Below are positions 343 through 64,000 of a DNA stretch of 64,000 nt, piece by piece. A model generated the notes under the pieces. The model did no database searches. It worked only from the letters and a program-made list of their open reading frames with translations, and was not told the DNA's origin. The DNA is from an uncultured delta proteobacterium (lineage in GTDB: Bacteria > Desulfobacterota > Syntrophobacteria > Syntrophobacterales > Syntrophobacteraceae), in assembly GCA_963808625.1 (NCBI GenBank), contig CAWEHK010000021.1, positions 32,001 to 96,000 on the forward strand. The letters run 5' to 3'. The position numbers were made by a program, and so were the translations under genes. Position 1 is the stretch's first letter; every line of letters starts with the position of its first letter.

Positions 343-1554
343 CGGGTAGTGGTGACCGGTGTCGGTCTGGTCACGCCGCTCGGCGTGGGCAAGGATGTTT
401 TCACGCGGCAGCTCTTCGGCGGCCTTTCCGGCATTCGACCCATCACCCTTTTCGACACCGCCCGCTTTGATGCCAAATTGGGGGCTCAGGTCCGGGACTT
501 CACCCCGCAGGATTTCATCCGTCCCGCAACCCTGCGGCGCATGGATCGGTTGTCGCAAATGGCCACCGCAGCGGCGCGCATGGCCCTCGACGACGCCGGT
601 TTTCAAATCGGTCCGCACAACCGGGACCGGGTGGGTGTTGTGCTGGGGACCTGCTTCGGCGGTACCGATGTAGCCGCTCAATTCGGAAAGGTGCTCTTCA
701 CCGACAGCCCCAGGCGGGCCAACCCCATCCTCGTGCCAAACGTCGTGATGAACGCGCCGGCCGGACATGCGGCCATCGAACTGGGCGTCCGGGGTGTCAA
801 CACCACCGTCAACCACCGCGAGGTGTCGGCGGAGACGGCCATGGCCTATGCCGCGGCCGAGATTGGGCGGGGGCGCGCCGAGGTCATTCTCACGGGCGGC
901 GGCGAGATCATTTCGGAATTCTATTTTAACGTGCTGACCCACTTCCGCACCCTTTCTCCCCAGAAAGGCGGGCCGGAGGGGATTCGGCCCTTCGATGCCC
1001 GGCGCAACGGCACCATTGTCGGCGAGGGCGCGGGTATTGTCTGCCTCGAATCCCTGGAAAGCGCCGAAGCCCGGGGGGCCATCCCCTACTGCGAAATCGC
1101 GGGCTGGGGTCTGAGCGCCGCACCGGCCGGCCCCAACGATTGGCCGACGGACCCGGCCGGGCCGTCCCTGGCCATGACCAGGGCCCTGGCGGCCGCCCGG
1201 ATCGCTCCCGACGACATCGATTATGTCTGCGCGGCCGCCAACGGCGGGCGCCGGTCGGATCGACTCGAGGCCGAAGCCTTGGGCGCGGTTTTCGCCCAGC
1301 CGGGCCGTCAACCCCGCATCAGCGCCATCAAAGGCTCACTGGGCGAAAGTTTTTCGTCCGGCGGGATGCGCGCGGCAGCCATGGCGTTGTCCATCCAAAA
1401 TCAAACCCCGGCCCCCACCCTGGGGCTCTCCCAACCGATCTCGCCGCTGCACTTCGTCGTTAAAGCCGAAACCCGGGTTCCCATCCGTTACGGCCTGATC
1501 AACGGCATCTCGTCCGGCGGCACTTTTGCGGCGGTCATCATGAAGAATATTTGA
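334..1554 (+). CDS. Non-catalytic KS / chain-length-factor-like subunit
   Basis: KS N-terminus MLRRVVVTGVGLVTPLG. The catalytic Cys region reads NHREVS and the His motifs read CAAANGG and GESFSS, so the triad is lost. Confidence 0.8.
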   Translation: MLRRVVVTGVGLVTPLGVGKDVFTRQLFGGLSGIRPITLFDTARFDAKLGAQVRDFTPQDFIRPATLRRMDRLSQMATAAARMALDDAGFQIGPHNRDRVGVVLGTCFGGTDVAAQFGKVLFTDSPRRANPILVPNVVMNAPAGHAAIELGVRGVNTTVNHREVSAETAMAYAAAEIGRGRAEVILTGGGEIISEFYFNVLTHFRTLSPQKGGPEGIRPFDARRNGTIVGEGAGIVCLESLESAEARGAIPYCEIAGWGLSAAPAGPNDWPTDPAGPSLAMTRALAAARIAPDDIDYVCAAANGGRRSDRLEAEALGAVFAQPGRQPRISAIKGSLGESFSSGGMRAAAMALSIQNQTPAPTLGLSQPISPLHFVVKAETRVPIRYGLINGISSGGTFAAVIMKNI

Positions 1555-1729
1555 AGTCGTCATCCCCGTTGCGCTCATGCTGGGCATCGGAATTCCGGCC
1601 AACGAGATATGCCCACTCCATTGCCCGAAGAAGTCGGGGTTGGCGCTGCCGCAAGGCGCAACGCCCAGAGGCTATGCCGATAGACATTTTGAACCCGATA
1701 CCCAAAATTTTCATGAGGAAGGAAAGCGC

Positions 1730-2890
1730 ATGCAAAGCAGCCTCTCTGTTGTGGCCGTGAATGGTTCGCCGCACACCGGCGCTGGAAATACAGCGTTGAT
1801 GCTGGCGATGATCGGGGATTCCCTGGACCGGCTCGGGCTAAGACTGGAGGTCATCCATCTCGCCGACCACGTCATCGAATACTGCGTAGGATGCGGCTTT
1901 TGCATTGAAAACGGCAAATGCTGGGTGCCTGACGATCATGCGGCCATCCTCGATCGACTGCTCGCCGCCGACGCAGTCATTCTCGCATCCCCGGTTTATT
2001 TTTTTCATGTCACCGCCCAAACGAAGACGTTCCTGGATCGCAGCCTGGTTCTGGGCCATCGGCCTCGACCCACATGGAAACCGGGGCTGGCCGTATCGGT
2101 CTCGGCCGGGGCTGGTGAAACCCAAGTCGCGGATTATCTGGCTGGAATGCTCCGCGTCTACGGGGCGTTTCCCGTGGGGAGTCTGACCGCCTTGGCGACC
2201 GTGCCCGGAGGGTTCGTCGGCAAAGATGCGGTGGCGGCTCGTGCAGAGGATCTTGCAGGGGACCTGGCGCGGGCGATCAGGGAAAAGCGCCGCTATCCGG
2301 CAACGGAAATGGACCTTCGATATTACCACTTCATGTCCGCCCTCATCCGCGAAAACCGCGATGCGGTGATGAAGAACGATTTCGACTATTGGGAAGAGAC
2401 CGGATTGAATCAAGGATTTGCAGCCTATCTCCAGCAGCAGCGGGAAACGACGGCCCCCCGCGACCCGGAACTCCGCAAGGCATGGATGAAGGAATTGACG
2501 GCGGAGTACGCCAAGAAGCGTTCCCTCAGGGGAACCCCCAAGTCGAAACCGACCCCCGATGGGTCCTCGCCTGCCAAAACCTGCCGTGAACTCTTGCAGA
2601 TCATGCCCGCCATCCTTGATCGGTCGGCGGCGAAGGGGTTGCATGCCGTTTACGAATTCCAGGTGTCGGGTGAAGAAGTCTTCAGCGCTCATTTAAGAAT
2701 CGAAGATGGGACCTGCACCTATGCTGAAGGGCCGGCGGACAGCCCGGACGTGGTCATCAAGACACCGGCGAGCGTGTGGTTGGCGATATCAAGAGGTGAA
2801 CTCGACGGTCAAACGGCTTTCCTGAGCCGCAAATTCACCGTCGAGGGGAATCTGACGCTGCTCTTTAAGATGAAGACGCTGTTCCATTGA
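1730..2890 (+). CDS. Iron-sulfur flavoprotein (FMN reductase/flavodoxin-like) fused to a C-terminal SCP2 sterol/lipid-binding domain
   Basis: VNGSP, CVGCGFCIENGKC and ADAVILASPVY motifs. The C-terminal YEFQVSG..ADSPDVVIK..GELDGQTAFLSRKFTVEGNL is SCP2-like. ATG 1730 follows GAAGGAAAG. Confidence 0.85.
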   Translation: MQSSLSVVAVNGSPHTGAGNTALMLAMIGDSLDRLGLRLEVIHLADHVIEYCVGCGFCIENGKCWVPDDHAAILDRLLAADAVILASPVYFFHVTAQTKTFLDRSLVLGHRPRPTWKPGLAVSVSAGAGETQVADYLAGMLRVYGAFPVGSLTALATVPGGFVGKDAVAARAEDLAGDLARAIREKRRYPATEMDLRYYHFMSALIRENRDAVMKNDFDYWEETGLNQGFAAYLQQQRETTAPRDPELRKAWMKELTAEYAKKRSLRGTPKSKPTPDGSSPAKTCRELLQIMPAILDRSAAKGLHAVYEFQVSGEEVFSAHLRIEDGTCTYAEGPADSPDVVIKTPASVWLAISRGELDGQTAFLSRKFTVEGNLTLLFKMKTLFH

Positions 2891-3123
2891 CACCCATGCG
2901 GGGTAAAATTACCGTAATGGTATTCAAAAAATAATGATTGTGTATTGGGTTGCCCCAAGCTAATATGAATGATTGAGGTTATTTTACGCTGGTTTGGAAA
3001 GCCGGTGGGGACGGCTGTGTTAGAGAGAGCCCGGTTCGCAATCCGGCCGCTTCCCGCAGGATAAGCAACCGGTCTTCATGAAGCGGCCCGGCAATAAGAG
3101 TGGGTGCCATTGAGGAATAGAGC

Positions 3124-3546
3124 ATGCAGCAGCGAGACGTGCCCCAGGACGAAGGATTGAACCTGGGGATGCGGGAGATCACTTACGCTATCGATGAAAA
3201 CGGCCGCTACGTTGGCGTTCCGAGCCTGGGGTGGGAACCGAAGAATATCGCCAACGCCCAGGCATGGGAAGTGATTGCTGAAAATATCAAGAGCGAAGCC
3301 CGCCTGGTCAGGGATGGCAAGCGAAGCCCCCTGGCCTATCATTTGGCCAGGCATCTCATGACGGTCGGCTTGGCCGCCAGTTATGTTCGCCTGCCCCGCT
3401 GGCGCGTGAAGCGCCATCTCAAGCCCTCGGTTTTCAACCGGCTAAAACCGGAGATCATGCAGCGATACGCCGATCTATTCGGCCTTACCCTCGCGGAATT
3501 CAAGCAAATCCCCGAAGCAGACGTTAATTTACTGGACCAGGAATAG
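3124..3546 (+). CDS. Conserved hypothetical protein (VPQD N-terminus) of the kind found beside BtrH-like genes in flexirubin/resorcinol clusters
   Basis: 140-aa ORF with SD GAGGA. The family link is from recall of MxxxDVPQD..YAIDENG..GWEP. Confidence 0.6.
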   Translation: MQQRDVPQDEGLNLGMREITYAIDENGRYVGVPSLGWEPKNIANAQAWEVIAENIKSEARLVRDGKRSPLAYHLARHLMTVGLAASYVRLPRWRVKRHLKPSVFNRLKPEIMQRYADLFGLTLAEFKQIPEADVNLLDQE

Positions 3547-3553
3547 CTCTGAC

Positions 3554-4567
3554 ATGGAAATACCTTTCAACCACCGTCAATCGGCTCACTGCGAGACCGG
3601 TGTTCTTACGAATTTGCTGTACCACTACGGGTTGAACATCAGCGAGTCGATGGTTTTCGGCATTGGTTCCGGCCTCTTTTTCGGTTATTTCCCATTTATC
3701 CGCATCAATCGCCTGCCCCTTACGGCATTCAGAGTCCGCACGGGCGGCATCATGAAACGGGCCGTCAAACGCCTGGGCGTTTCGCTTGCCTGGGAAAAAT
3801 TCAGAAGCCCCGAAAAAGCGATGGCGGTTCTGGACCAGAAACTGGTCGACGCGGTCCCGGTCGGGTGCCGCACCGGAGCCTATTGGCTGAGTTACTTCCC
3901 CAGACGGTACCGGTTCCACTTCAACATGCACAACCTGGTCGTGTTCGGCAAACAAAACGGCAGCTACCTCGTCAGCGACCCGGTTTTCCCCGAACCCGTT
4001 CTCTGCCCGCATGACGACCTGATGAAGGCCCGGTTTGCCCGCGGCCCGATGCCGCCCAAAGGCCGGATGTATTATGTGACCCATGTGCCTTCGCAGCCGA
4101 ACCTCTCCGAAGCGGTCCGCCGGGGGATCAAAGAGGTTTGCCGCACCATGCTGAAGGCCCCGGGACCGTTTCTGGGGGTCAAGGGCATTCGATACCTGGC
4201 AAAAAATGTCGAATCATGGGCGCACAAGATGGAGGCGCGCGAGGCCGCGCTCCGCCTGGGGCAGGTCATCCGGATGCAGGAGGAGATCGGGACCGGCGGC
4301 GGTGGGTTTCGCTTCATCTACGCCGCCTTCTTGCAGGAGGCGGCCGGCCTCCTGAACGATGACCATCTTCAGCGGCTGTCTGACCGCATGACCGAGGTGG
4401 GGGACCTGTGGCGCGAGTTTGCGCTCATCGGGTCGCGGATTTGCAAGCAGCGCGCCGGTGAAACGGAGACTTATGCCGCGCTGGCGGCGATCCTGCGGCA
4501 ATGTGCGGACAAGGAAACCCGCCTCTATCAGGATCTCCTGGCACGCATGGACCAGGTGTCGGCATGA
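3554..4567 (+). CDS. BtrH N-terminal/DUF4872 (peptidase C39-like) protein
   Basis: HRQSAHCETG (Cys), FNMHNLVV (His), VSDP (Asp) and EEIGTGGGGFR motifs. Confidence 0.8.
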   Translation: MEIPFNHRQSAHCETGVLTNLLYHYGLNISESMVFGIGSGLFFGYFPFIRINRLPLTAFRVRTGGIMKRAVKRLGVSLAWEKFRSPEKAMAVLDQKLVDAVPVGCRTGAYWLSYFPRRYRFHFNMHNLVVFGKQNGSYLVSDPVFPEPVLCPHDDLMKARFARGPMPPKGRMYYVTHVPSQPNLSEAVRRGIKEVCRTMLKAPGPFLGVKGIRYLAKNVESWAHKMEAREAALRLGQVIRMQEEIGTGGGGFRFIYAAFLQEAAGLLNDDHLQRLSDRMTEVGDLWREFALIGSRICKQRAGETETYAALAAILRQCADKETRLYQDLLARMDQVSA

Positions 4568-59781: not shown

Positions 59782-60810
59782 TCACCTTTGCCAGAACGGC
59801 CGCGCCTTTTCGGCGGTCAGCTCCGGCGCCGAGAACGTGGCCATGTCGCCCAGCATCACCTCGAAACCGGTAATATCGCTGCGCACCCAGGGAGCGTAGT
59901 TGCTGCGCACGGTGAGGACCACTCGCAGCTCCAGGTCGTCCGAGCCATCTTCCAGGAGAAGCAGCCCGAGATTGTAACCATTGCGGCCGAGGCTGCGGTA
60001 GAACTGTTGGGCGTTCAGCACGCCTTGCGCCAGGGCCTGCCAGTGATCGTCGGTAGCCTGGCGCAGGGAGGTAACTCCTGGCAGAATGCCCCAGATTTCA
60101 AAAAAGCCCTCGGGTGCAAAAGCGGCCAGCCATTGCCAGGAACCGGTAGCGCCGATGGTGCGCTGCCCTGACTGTTTTTCAGATTGCAGATAAGCGGAGA
60201 AAAGACGTACGCTGGATTGACGGTGATACTCGGCGGCACGGCCTTGCAGGAAACGTTGGAAATTGGCGGGTGTACGGTCGGCCTGCGCCTGCAGGTGGGG
60301 ATGGAGCAAAGATCCGCCGGCCGAGGGCAGGTGATTCTGGGTGATGGCCATGAAGACCGCTGCAGGATCATGGGACAAGACCCGTAAAAGATAGTCCCGG
60401 CAGTTGAGGAAACTGTCCGTGTAGGATTGCAGAGCTGCCGTGCCGATCTCCACGAAGTGGCCATCGTCGAAAAGGCTTACCGCCGAGTAGCGCCCGTAGG
60501 GAAACAGGTTGGGAAAAAGCGTGGAGGTCCCTCGGGTCATGCGACCTTGCGGACACAGCTCAGGCGGAAACTGCGGGGTGCACGTGGCGATCCGGGCACG
60601 GCAAAACGGGCACTTGTCCCGGTCAGCGGCAAAGGGCGGCGGTGCGGGCAGAGCTTCCATGCCGGGCTCGCACTCTTCGCCGCGGCTGTAAGTAATCCGG
60701 CAGGTGCGCCCCGTGATGGGATGGGTGCGGATCTCGATGGGGCGATCGGCAGGAACGCCGGTGGGCAGCACAATCCGGGAATGAAATCTTTCCTGTTTAA
60801 ACTGCAACAT
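59782..60810 (-). CDS. Galactose-1-phosphate uridylyltransferase-like (GalT/HIT) protein
   Basis: IRTHPITG, CPFC, FPNLFPY and AGGSLLHPHLQ. Confidence 0.8.
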   Translation of the reverse strand: MLQFKQERFHSRIVLPTGVPADRPIEIRTHPITGRTCRITYSRGEECEPGMEALPAPPPFAADRDKCPFCRARIATCTPQFPPELCPQGRMTRGTSTLFPNLFPYGRYSAVSLFDDGHFVEIGTAALQSYTDSFLNCRDYLLRVLSHDPAAVFMAITQNHLPSAGGSLLHPHLQAQADRTPANFQRFLQGRAAEYHRQSSVRLFSAYLQSEKQSGQRTIGATGSWQWLAAFAPEGFFEIWGILPGVTSLRQATDDHWQALAQGVLNAQQFYRSLGRNGYNLGLLLLEDGSDDLELRVVLTVRSNYAPWVRSDITGFEVMLGDMATFSAPELTAEKARPFWQR

Positions 60811-60964: not shown

Positions 60965-61372
60965 TCACTGTGATCGCACTTCCAGCCTCAGCCCCTCGAT
61001 CTTCTCGAAATCGCGCCGGTTAGCCGTGATAACCGAATAGTCAAGGGAAATGGCCGTGGCTGCGATGATCAGGTCGTGGGCGCCGATGGTCAATCCCTTC
61101 TTTGCCAGGGAGGCCCAGATGCGTGCATAAATGCGCGCCACCGTGGTGTCGAAGGGAAAGATGGGGAATGACTCCAACACCTTTTCAACGAAGGACTGGC
61201 GCTTCAGCCGACGGGCCTCGGTATCGGCGCGTTCCACTCCATGCAGCAGTTCCGCAACGGTAACCACACTGATGCCGAATGGTTCATCCTCGCGACCAGA
61301 CACGAGGATTTGCACCTGTGCTCGGTTCCGTTCAAGGGAGATGATTTCGCTGGAATCAAAGATTACCCCCAT
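60965..61372 (-). CDS. vapC: PIN-domain (VapC-like) toxin
   Basis: IFDSS, VAELLHG, DLIIAATA and TANRRDF. Confidence 0.9.
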   Translation of the reverse strand: MGVIFDSSEIISLERNRAQVQILVSGREDEPFGISVVTVAELLHGVERADTEARRLKRQSFVEKVLESFPIFPFDTTVARIYARIWASLAKKGLTIGAHDLIIAATAISLDYSVITANRRDFEKIEGLRLEVRSQ

Positions 61373-61644
61373 ACCGTATCCTCCGGCAGAGGGGGTTGGG
61401 CTTTGACTGCCCCAAGAACGTCATCGGCAAAGTTGATGTCATCGGGATCGAGCTTCGGTAAGGTCTGAAAAATGCCTTTCAAATCGCCCATATGTCGGGG
61501 AGAACCGGCTTCATCAACCGGGACAAGGGCCGCCGCCGGTTTTCCCCCGCGAATGATCGTATAGCGGTCCCCACGGTATTTGATGTTGTTCAACAGTTCG
61601 GAAAAATGTCTGACCGCCTCGGTAGCGCTTATGTCTGGTCGCAT
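61363..61644 (-). CDS. Phd/YefM-family antitoxin
   Basis: ISATEAVRHFSELL..IIRGGKPAAALVP; overlaps the toxin start; SD GAGGAGG. Confidence 0.88.
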   Translation of the reverse strand: MRPDISATEAVRHFSELLNNIKYRGDRYTIIRGGKPAAALVPVDEAGSPRHMGDLKGIFQTLPKLDPDDINFADDVLGAVKAQPPLPEDTVWG

Positions 61645-62178
61645 GGTTTCCTCCTCGTAAAATATTATTATCATATTTTACACAAACAATGCGTGACCGG
61701 CAAGAGGACTCTGCCCCAATCGGGATAAATCGACATCGCCTCATGCAGCCCGAAGCCCCAGCCTCGACCCATCTCCAGAGTGACGTGGGAGAGCATGGCA
61801 TTGCACACGGGATTTTCAAATCACCTTTCCCATCCGCTCTGCGATAATGAGCAATACTGCAATTTCCCAGCGACCCGCGAGAGCCAGAAGAGGCAGCGCC
61901 AGGACATCGCGCACGATGCGACGCAGGGGGATAACCTGGCTGCTGACGATCAGGTTGTGACATGCCTCAGAAGAGGATTTCGCGATCTTACCTTGACTTG
62001 ATTTCTTATTCGTTGAGTACCGTGCCATTCAATGACTGTCTGACGATTTCCATTTCCACTCGAATGCTCCTTCTTCCTGTCTGGGCCGGCCCTGACCCGG
62101 AATGCTTGGTGATGGTGTTCTAAATTCTCGCGCCTTCCCACCGTAGAGCGTTTCCGTGGCGGGTCTCCAATTTGGATA

Positions 62179-62444: not shown

Positions 62445-62807
62445 ATGGAGCAAAAGAGAAGGAGGAACATCCTGTTGCCGCGGCGCAGGAGGCAATGGTG
62501 CTGCGCGAGCGAGCACTTCCAGACCGTCGCTTTTCTTGCAAAGAGCCTATCGGATGAGAACCGGCTGCGGATCATCCTCTGCGTGAGCAACGGCAAGAAG
62601 TCCGTCTCGAGCATCGTTGAGGAACTCGGTCTTTCGCAGCCCCTGGTTTCCCATCACCTGAAGGAGCTCAAGCGATCGCTGCTGGTCAAGATCGAGCGCA
62701 ACGGCCCTTTCATCTATTACGAACTGGTTGATGCGAGAATCCTCGATGTCTTTCGGACATTGAGCACCGTGGCAACGGATTTGCTGACCGCAAGGAAAAC
62801 CTTTTGA
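62445..62807 (+). CDS. ArsR/SmtB-family transcriptional regulator
   Basis: KSLSDENRLRII..LGLSQPLVSHHLKEL..IYYEL. The N-terminal 20 aa are uncertain. Confidence 0.9.
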   Translation: MEQKRRRNILLPRRRRQWCCASEHFQTVAFLAKSLSDENRLRIILCVSNGKKSVSSIVEELGLSQPLVSHHLKELKRSLLVKIERNGPFIYYELVDARILDVFRTLSTVATDLLTARKTF

Positions 62808-62832: not shown

Positions 62833-63282
62833 ATGGAAGAGATGCTGAAAATAGTTGGCCACATGGATCCGGAAGAAGCGCTCACCGAAATATCCCAAGT
62901 CCTGAAAGTGCTTTTCTCCGCTTTGGGTGAAGAGGCGCGTTCGCAATTCCTGTGGGACCTCATGGGAGAGTCCCGGGGCGACAAGGTGTCGAGCCTGGTC
63001 CATCTCTGACTGGCCGAATGCATGGGCGAAGGTGTCGACCCGACGCAAATGTGTCAGAGACTGGTGGATAAGGTTGCCCAATCCAAACAACTGATGGCGA
63101 TGACCGATCCGGATCTCCTGGTGCTGTTCGAAGACTGGTTTGAAGAACTGGAAGAGGAGATCATCTCGCTCGTCAGCGAGCATGGCCCTCTCAAAGCGGG
63201 AGAGCTTGCCGAAAAGACCGGGCTCTCCCTGCGGGGGGCAACCTTCCTCCTCTCAAAGCTCAAACGTGAGGGAAAATTGTAG
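62833..63282 (+). CDS. Putative selenoprotein (149 aa; Sec59 at TGA 63007-63009) with a C-terminal winged-helix-like segment
   Basis: SD GGAGGT then ATG 62833, 58 open codons, TGA, then an in-frame continuation LAECMGEGVDPTQMC. SECIS-like hairpin at 63024-63041. The internal ATG at 63022 has no SD. Confidence 0.75.
63024..63041 (+). promoter_or_regulatory. Putative SECIS element
   Basis: GGGCGA [AGGTG] TCG-A-CCC. The loop starts 20 nt after the UGA, with lower pairings TGC/GCA and CTGGC/GTCAG. Confidence 0.65.
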
Positions 63283-63320: not shown

Positions 63321-64000
63321 ATGCAGAACAAGAGAACGACCTTCACAGCCCTTGTGGCGGTACTGCTTACGGTTGGGGCCCTCTGGCTTACCAATCGCGC
63401 CGTTACTCCCAAGCAGGCTGCATGGGACGATGTTTTGGCCGAAGCGACAGCCGGAGGCTACAAGATTATCACCACCGACGAGCTTTCCGAGCGCTATCAA
63501 AACGATGCCAAAAGCCTTCTCCTGGTGGACACTCGCCAGGAATGGGAGTATCGGACAGGGCATCTCCCGGGAGCGGTAAACTTTCCCATGGAGCCGACCT
63601 CATGGTCGAGATGGCGCAAGGCATCGGCACTCGAAACCTTCCTCGGGCCGGATAAGGATCGCACCATCATCTTCTACTGAGCGGGCCTCACCTGAGTCCG
63701 CAGCGACTCGGCGGCCCGTGTGGCCGTAAAGCTCGGTTATCAGAACGTCTACCGCGACCCTTATGGCTATCCTGAATGGCAGGGGAGAGGGTTGCCCGTT
63801 GCGAGCGCCCCGGCAGGCCTAGCCCAAACAAGCGAAGAGCCCAAGGCGCCGGGACCTCTTTACGGCTGGGCCATGATCTGGACCCTGTTGGGCATCTTCG
63901 CCGGTGGCATGGCCTTGAACCTCACCCCTTGCGTCTACCCCCTGATTCCTATTACCGTCTCCTACTTTGGCGGCCAGGCCACAAAGGGAGGAGAAGGCCA
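63321..64000 (+). CDS. Membrane-anchored rhodanese with two Sec (TGA 63678-80 and 63693-95) fused to a DsbD/CcdA transmembrane domain; 3' truncated
   Basis: VDTRQEWEYRTGHLPGAVN..IIFY-U-AGLT-U-VRSDSAARVAVKLGYQNVY..GYPEW..GLPV..ALNLTPCVYPLIPITVSYFGG, all in one frame. Confidence 0.88.
63711..63727 (+). promoter_or_regulatory. Putative SECIS element
   Basis: GCGGCC [CGTGT] GGCCGT. The loop starts 21 nt after the second UGA and 36 nt after the first. Confidence 0.65.

Follow-up and report, generated by a model that had tools for sequence, protein, structure and literature searches.

A tsoB gene with two in-frame TGA codons, predicted to encode a double-selenocysteine rhodanese fused to a DsbD-type membrane core, in an uncultured member of the Syntrophobacteraceae

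The DNA analysed here (64,000 nucleotides, hereafter the window) corresponds to positions 32001-96000 of contig CAWEHK010000021.1 (G000:C21) from the assembly GCA_963808625.1 of an uncultured Syntrophobacteraceae bacterium. Its last 680 nucleotides (nt), window positions 63321-64000 on the forward strand, hold the 5' part of a gene that we identify, with very little doubt, as tsoB of a tsoR-tsoA-tsoB-tsoC operon, both in-frame UGA codons of which are read as selenocysteine (Sec, U). With translation table 11, an open reading frame (ORF) at 63321-63680 on the forward strand closes at the first TGA, and another frame, in phase with it, opens at a GTG at position 63720. From position 63669, the sequence around both TGA codons is ATC TTC TAC TGA GCG GGC CTC ACC TGA GTC CGC AGC. 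When TGA was translated as U, a single product extending to the end of the window was obtained with no further stop (...TIIFYUAGLTUVRSDSAARVAVKLGYQNVYRDPYGYPEWQGRGLPV...LNLTPCVYPLIPITVSYFGG...), and it includes FYUAGLTUVRS, LGYQNVY, GYPEW, GLP and LNLTPCVYPLIP. The two in-frame TGA codons are located at 63678-63680 (residue 120) and 63693-63695 (residue 125), and translation upheld the claim of a preliminary description of this DNA that two in-frame TGA codons lie five residues apart in one frame past 63680. On the contig beyond the window the frame continues to give a protein of 610 amino acids (aa), terminated by a third TGA. The complete gene has 1833 nt and ends at a point equivalent to window position 65153 (G000:C21:97153; positions 1322-3154 of locus L003). 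This case confirms that gene callers break tsoB at its first TGA.

The TsoB protein consists of an N-terminal membrane helix, a rhodanese domain, a DsbD-type membrane core and a C-terminal thioredoxin domain. The N-terminal hydrophobic helix (residues 7-24, window 63339-63392, forward strand), a predicted signal anchor or signal peptide, is preceded by K4 and R5 and falls within helix 4-25 of the AlphaFold2 (AF2) model. The rhodanese domain spans residues 52-154 (63474-63782, forward strand), with a PF00581 score of 58.9 bits against a cut-off of 22.2 and a predicted local distance difference test (pLDDT) of 75-93 in the model. The DsbD-type core starts at residue 186 (63876-64000, forward strand, within the window), and the DsbD_TM match (PF02683, 136.4 bits) covers residues 186-402; the first membrane cysteine, C204 (codon 63930-63932), is in the sequence LNLTPCVYP. 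A Thioredoxin_7 match (PF13899) covers residues 465-551. Pfam domains were found on both sides of the TGA codons, in agreement with the proposal that a rhodanese with two Sec codons in its active-site loop is fused to a DsbD-type core, and the continuation of this core past position 64000, for which the preliminary description had advised looking, was observed together with the thioredoxin domain.

The assignment to the TsoB family rests on the NCBIfam profile NF045694 (seleno_TsoB, rhodanese/DsbD fusion-like selenoprotein), which matched at model positions 2-571 (of 572 in all) with 1024.3 bits against a cut-off of 805 and gave 1012.4 bits when six frames were searched, on a UxxxxU motif specified by two UGA codons in the rhodanese loop and on the three-domain architecture. 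Family, motif and operon have already been published and are covered by the annotation models of NCBI, and this gene is a further member, that is, a rediscovery. The possibility that such fusions had already been catalogued was raised in the preliminary description, and it proved right: in a review (PMC13188914), TsoB is listed with the motif UxxxxU and two Sec residues and is credited to Haft & Tolstoy 2025. No functional study of TsoB was found in a literature search of limited coverage.

The tso cluster is complete, with four Sec codons in three proteins, and its genes lie on one strand in the order R-A-B-C, tsoR, tsoA and tsoC all scoring over their cut-offs. The tsoR gene (62445-62807, forward strand) encodes an ArsR/SmtB-type metalloregulator of 120 aa (NCBIfam NF045707, 172.7 bits against a cut-off of 115), which carries three cysteines (CC at residues 19-20 and C46 in ILCVS). 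It is followed by tsoA (62833-63282, forward strand), which encodes a 149-aa selenoprotein with the motif LULAxC, here LULAEC (NF045695, seleno_TsoA, 225.8 bits against a cut-off of 170); its single TGA, at 63007-63009, corresponds to U59. Table 11 breaks tsoA into the ORFs 62833-63009 and 63022-63282. The tsoC gene lies past the window on the forward strand (L003 3093-3431, G000:C21:97092-97430) and encodes a selenoprotein of 112 aa with the motif NEPxGxxU and one TGA, U16 being in NEPGGKPU (NF045708, 145.4 bits against a cut-off of 45). The start of tsoC overlaps the 3' end of tsoB by 62 nt. The AF2 model of TsoC (pLDDT 86.1) has a thioredoxin fold with the Sec at the N-terminus of helix 1, and its best matches in the PDB (Foldseek) were generic thioredoxins, with E-values of about 2e-3 and TM of about 0.5. 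A role of TsoC as an ArsD-like metallochaperone was not supported, with no match in Pfam and no ArsD among the Foldseek rows shown; the support stops at the thioredoxin fold. TsoB has 610 aa here versus 577-588 in most of the 26 homologues described below, with a C-terminal tail about 27 aa longer; the usual stop after the sequence MAELKK is absent and the frame enters tsoC for about 27 codons (L003 3070-3154).

To assess the conservation of the gene, 401 sampled genomes of the phylum, this one among them, were searched in six frames with NF045694. TsoB was found over the cut-off in 26 genomes, and exactly two in-frame TGA codons were present in each of the 30 matches. For the comparison of loci one locus per genome was used (26 of the 30 over-cut-off matches, with flanks of 1.5 kb). 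The motif FYUAGL[TA]UVRSD[SA]AARV with both TGA codons was conserved in 26/26 loci, and the four codons that separate the two TGA codons (Ala, Gly, Leu and Thr/Ala) vary at synonymous sites. U120, U125, C204, C323, C493 and C496 are invariant in the same 26 loci. In 22 of the 26 loci TsoR and TsoA were encoded upstream, and the same number (22) had TsoC downstream; the exceptions are L038 and L044, which are cut by contig ends, L046, with neither neighbour, L050, without the upstream pair, and L033 and L049, without TsoC. In the TsoA sequences adjoining TsoB the TGA is kept within [LFR]ULAxC (22/22), and the 25 TsoC-like sequences, which come from 21 loci, all retain their own TGA. In L031, L034, L038 and L048, TsoC is accompanied in tandem by a further, shorter paralogue that carries N[ED]PCGLTU, the GLTU of which resembles the AGLTU of TsoB. 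In one genome the TsoB match, G360:C14:444866-446519 (forward strand), is in two overlapping pieces (model positions 4-291 and 278-554), the second with an extra TGA, and may be a frameshifted copy.

One important question is which residues occupy the two positions in relatives lacking TGA. The search with the rhodanese domain returned many TGA-free stand-alone relatives with 37-48% identity, and in the three that were inspected (L084, L085 and a paralogue on contig C16 of this genome) the loop reads FYCGFT[KQ]C[TA]RS, with cysteine at both Sec positions. These stand-alone periplasmic CxxxxCxRS rhodaneses of the phylum are 42-48% identical to TsoB over the domain and have the same loop length, but they have no Sec and no DsbD fusion, and each carries its own signal peptide. 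The C16 paralogue (L004, about 4041-4524, reverse strand), a periplasmic single-domain rhodanese with FYCGFTKCARS, seems to carry a frameshift near GPDK, judging from its intact homologues in L084 and L085. Double-Sec forms without the DsbD fusion exist as well: stand-alone rhodanese genes whose active-site loop has two in-frame TGA codons are present in L083 (G160:C12, FYUDGPSUVRS) and in four rhodanese-only TsoB-like matches (G051:C23:38466-38939, G397:C53:6958-7428, G325:C208:89-547 and G373:C26:13491-14006), the last of which holds three TGA codons in the NF045694 search.

In an alignment with solved rhodaneses (FYCGGG--FRS in 6mxv, and others), U120 (UGA1) aligned with the catalytic cysteine, whereas U125 (UGA2) is located in a two-residue insertion of the active-site loop. 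TsoB shares with the rhodanese sulfurtransferases (PF00581; 6mxv, 1uar and RDL2, 6k6r) the fold family, the position of its first Sec at the catalytic cysteine and the Arg-Ser that closes the loop; it differs from them in having C-x6-R-S instead of the C-x4-R-S of 6mxv, a second chalcogen residue, and a domain that is membrane-tethered and fused to its presumed reductant. Hence, the earlier claim that both TGA codons sit at rhodanese cysteine positions held for the comparison with the TGA-free relatives and not for the canonical loop, in which only the first has a counterpart; cysteine at both positions is a property of this subfamily and not of rhodaneses generally.

The genome contains genes for Sec synthesis and insertion: selA (621.5 bits), selB (384 bits) and selD (372.4 bits) all scored over the cut-off in profile searches of the genome. 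The selD gene (G000:C44:20727-21647, reverse strand) has one in-frame TGA and thus appears to encode a selenoprotein itself. In four of four other TsoB genomes checked, a tRNA-Sec was found at 75-77 bits. With regard to the genetic code, TGA terminates 35 of the 55 open frames of at least 250 codons in the window, among them gyrB, gpsA and tsoR, and is the commonest terminator, and a global reassignment of TGA is therefore excluded; it also terminates tsoB itself, here and in nine other loci. The preliminary description had named reads with TGC or TGT at these codons as a point to be checked. No variant at either TGA was among the differences listed for contigs of two DNA and two RNA sequencing runs, which is a weak indication, the contigs being mostly from relatives and piling up on the conserved stretch 63666-63734; the best run contained 0.33 of the sampled words. 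Judged from these comparisons, both UGA codons are almost certainly read as Sec, which makes U120 and U125 putative residues of the protein.

In order to analyse candidate Sec insertion sequence (SECIS) elements, a 99-nt alignment of the 26 loci was used, and covariation was compared with 500 shuffles and with slid controls. Hairpin 1 (GAGUC-CGCAGC-GACUC, 63694-63709, forward strand), a candidate SECIS for UGA1, begins 13 nt after this codon and has five pairs, with 98.5% of the cells paired; four pairs are invariant, and the stem holds the G and the A of UGA2. The four-fold Val site (GUC) and the two-fold Asp site (GAC) of this hairpin are invariant in 26/26 loci. Hairpin 2 (GCGGCC-CGUGU-GGCCGU, 63711-63727, forward strand), a candidate SECIS for UGA2, begins 15 nt after it and has six pairs, 100% paired in the 26 loci. 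Pair 45-57, at synonymous third positions, is GC in 19 loci, AU in five and CG in two, and pair 48-54 is CG in 25 and UA in one. The covariation score of hairpin 2 was reached by 0 of the 500 shuffles, and the slid controls were paired in 23-63% of the cells. Each UGA appears to be provided with its own short candidate SECIS hairpin, 13 and 15 nt downstream, respectively.

The membrane part of TsoB was compared with DsbD (alpha, beta and gamma domains). The match to NF001419 (DsbD) is collinear between TsoB residues 184-578 and model positions 167-572 of 574, with 248 bits against a cut-off of 330. Both proteins have a membrane core with one cysteine in each of two helices, a C-terminal periplasmic thioredoxin-like CxxC domain and, as the third domain, an N-terminal periplasmic one in which two chalcogen residues lie close together; the differences are the score under the cut-off, the rhodanese in place of the immunoglobulin-like alpha domain and the terminal Sec/Sec pair instead of Cys/Cys. 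In the nearest TGA-free relatives of the membrane part, a DsbD-alpha-like N-terminal domain with YQACxxxxCxPPE (C-x4-C) occupies the place of the TsoB rhodanese. TsoB is accordingly not a DsbD by score and alpha domain, while on paper it would work like one. The full-length AF2 model shows the N-terminal helix plus eight further membrane helices. The predicted cytoplasmic loops hold 11 lysines plus arginines and the three short predicted periplasmic loops hold none, which puts the N-terminus on the cytoplasmic side of the membrane and both the rhodanese and the thioredoxin domain on the outer side. This distribution fits the periplasm-facing orientation put forward in the preliminary description.

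That TsoB works like DsbD, with its three redox pairs arranged as in DsbD, is a proposal we favour by a little, and the tsoB identity and this mechanism taken jointly are held with the same slight preference. Cytoplasmic electrons, presumably from thioredoxin, would be passed to the membrane cysteine pair C204/C323, from there to the periplasmic C-terminal thioredoxin domain (C493-x-x-C496), and from C493/C496 to the periplasmic rhodanese domain that stands in place of the DsbD alpha domain. There, the loop U120-AGLT-U125-V-R-S would form and resolve a selenenyl-selenide, and the reduced Sec pair, lying in the anion-binding rhodanese loop, might, outside the cytoplasm, reduce or carry a small species of sulfur, selenium or a metalloid. 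TsoB would probably act with the single-Sec proteins TsoA and TsoC, the latter with a thioredoxin fold, under the ArsR/SmtB-type sensor TsoR. Recycling of the diselenide by the fused conduit of TsoB itself, as the preliminary description had put it, would be a reasonable inference. More tentatively, TsoB could be the first DsbD-type relay ending in a diselenide. It would act in the periplasm, receive its electrons through the membrane and use its Sec-Sec pair to reduce or carry one particular chalcogen or metalloid species sensed by TsoR (e.g. polysulfide, selenite, tellurite or arsenic). The two UGA codons, which lie 15 nt apart, would be decoded via tandem mini-SECIS hairpins. If so, hairpin 1 must melt before the second Sec is inserted, since UGA2 is in its stem.

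Several results weigh against this picture, the first of which concern the tRNA. The preliminary description had made the presence of selA, selB, selC and selD a test of the Sec reading; the first, second and fourth were present, and tRNA-Sec (selC) was not found in the assembly, which is 84.6% complete, where the sole Rfam match over the cut-off was a tRNA-Trp (Aragorn). Aragorn with default settings gave 39 tRNAs in the assembly, none of them SeC. No tRNA-Sec came up when Rfam was run on the surroundings of selA, selB, selD and the tso locus, and three tRNA-Sec candidates from a relaxed Aragorn search (90% threshold) all failed Rfam and were rejected. The assembly is also without tRNA-Ile and tRNA-Tyr, and the missing selC is read as assembly incompleteness, though it is still a gap. 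Regarding the hairpins, hairpin 1 never varies, so that covariation neither supports nor rejects it, the compensatory changes in hairpin 2 are confined to a few clades and probably reflect two to three events, and the single-sequence RNA folds after the four UGA codons were no stabler than shuffles (z from -0.63 to +0.26). Regarding the protein, the active-site loop is two residues beyond the canonical length, and sulfurtransferase chemistry cannot simply be assumed; the full-length AF2 model has a pLDDT of 67.6 and a predicted TM score (pTM) of 0.41, and its domain contacts are not readable. Finally, diselenides are much harder to reduce than disulfides, so a CxxC domain that reduced one would be working against the thermodynamics.

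That selC was not found might suggest that each TGA is a true stop or a mere error, in which case the locus would be a short secreted rhodanese fragment followed by a separate DsbD-like gene, a pseudogene or an assembly error. The split of the frame by table 11 and the apparent frameshifts elsewhere in the assembly (a chromate-transporter gene downstream of the operon and the C16 paralogue) are compatible with this. However, every locus and all 30 matches (26 genomes) keep both TGA codons amid synonymous sites that vary, a single hidden Markov model covers both sides of the TGA codons with 1024 bits, cysteine occupies both positions in relatives, and no variant was listed at these codons in the run contigs. 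Moreover, a product ending at residue 119 would be without the active-site loop and would have only half of the rhodanese fold. The conservation of the TGA codons effectively refutes this explanation, which we regard as extremely improbable. The same missing tRNA would also fit a reading in which an altered code or a suppressor tRNA places Trp, Gly or Cys at TGA instead of Sec. This is hardly credible in view of the use of TGA as terminator in the window and in tsoB itself, the presence of selA, selB and selD, the cysteines at the homologous positions, the SECIS-like hairpins at the usual spacing and the tRNA-Sec of the other TsoB genomes.

A third alternative accepts the same gene and the same Sec reading and differs in function. 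The U-x4-U motif would mainly be a binding site for soft metals or metalloids (e.g. Hg, Cd or As(III)), or for selenium or tellurium species, in a periplasmic carrier or detoxification system, and the role of the DsbD-type module would be limited to holding the selenols in their reduced form, with no catalytic turnover on a substrate. We consider this possible, short of probable. It is in keeping with the ArsR/SmtB-type regulator TsoR and its three cysteines, with the weak ArsR-like winged-helix match at the C-terminus of TsoA (18.5 bits) together with the U-x3-C motif of this protein, and with the Sec or Cys pairs in all three Tso proteins. A gene of the chromate transporter family (TIGR00937, 234.5 bits) follows tsoC here, and other 'metal-binding double selenoproteins', which come from the same source paper as TsoB, are listed in the review (PMC13188914). 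On the other hand, the complete and invariant three-pair cascade of DsbD type is the signature of catalytic electron delivery, and relatives of ArsR/SmtB also sense persulfide or sulfite, TsoR scoring 44.1 bits with the BigR model. The chrA gene adjoins the operon in 2/26 loci only, within the 1.5-kb flanks, and was rejected as a conserved functional neighbour; besides it, no metal-handling gene was seen beside the operon.

The tso operon is conserved, and its three selenoproteins, with four selenocysteines between them, would be fed by a DsbD-like conduit; the gene described here adds one member to the TsoB family. TsoB and the "three selenoprotein operon" were reportedly named and catalogued by Haft and Tolstoy in 2025. 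Compared with TsoB as modelled by NF045694, the protein described here has a score over the cut-off and the same motif, three domains and neighbours (TsoR, TsoA and TsoC); the longer tail, the 62-nt overlap with tsoC and the chromate-transporter-family gene after the operon are the differences. A cultured carrier would permit direct tests of periplasmic diselenide redox chemistry and of the decoding by SelB of two UGA codons that are five codons apart.

Two further observations concern the surroundings of the operon. The chrA gene (TIGR00937), past the window on the forward strand (L003 3508-4685), is divided between two frames, one matching model positions 1-69 and the other 69-365, with a break near L003 3780, due to a frameshift or an assembly error. 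On the other side, a gene for a VapC-like PIN toxin was found on the reverse strand at 60965-61674 of the window (NF047863, 85.6 bits, below the cut-off of 140); the 103-aa ORF in front of it, which shares 10 nt with the toxin gene, probably encodes the antitoxin. This pair is located between the tso operon and a 342-aa ORF (59782-60810, reverse strand) with no NCBIfam match.

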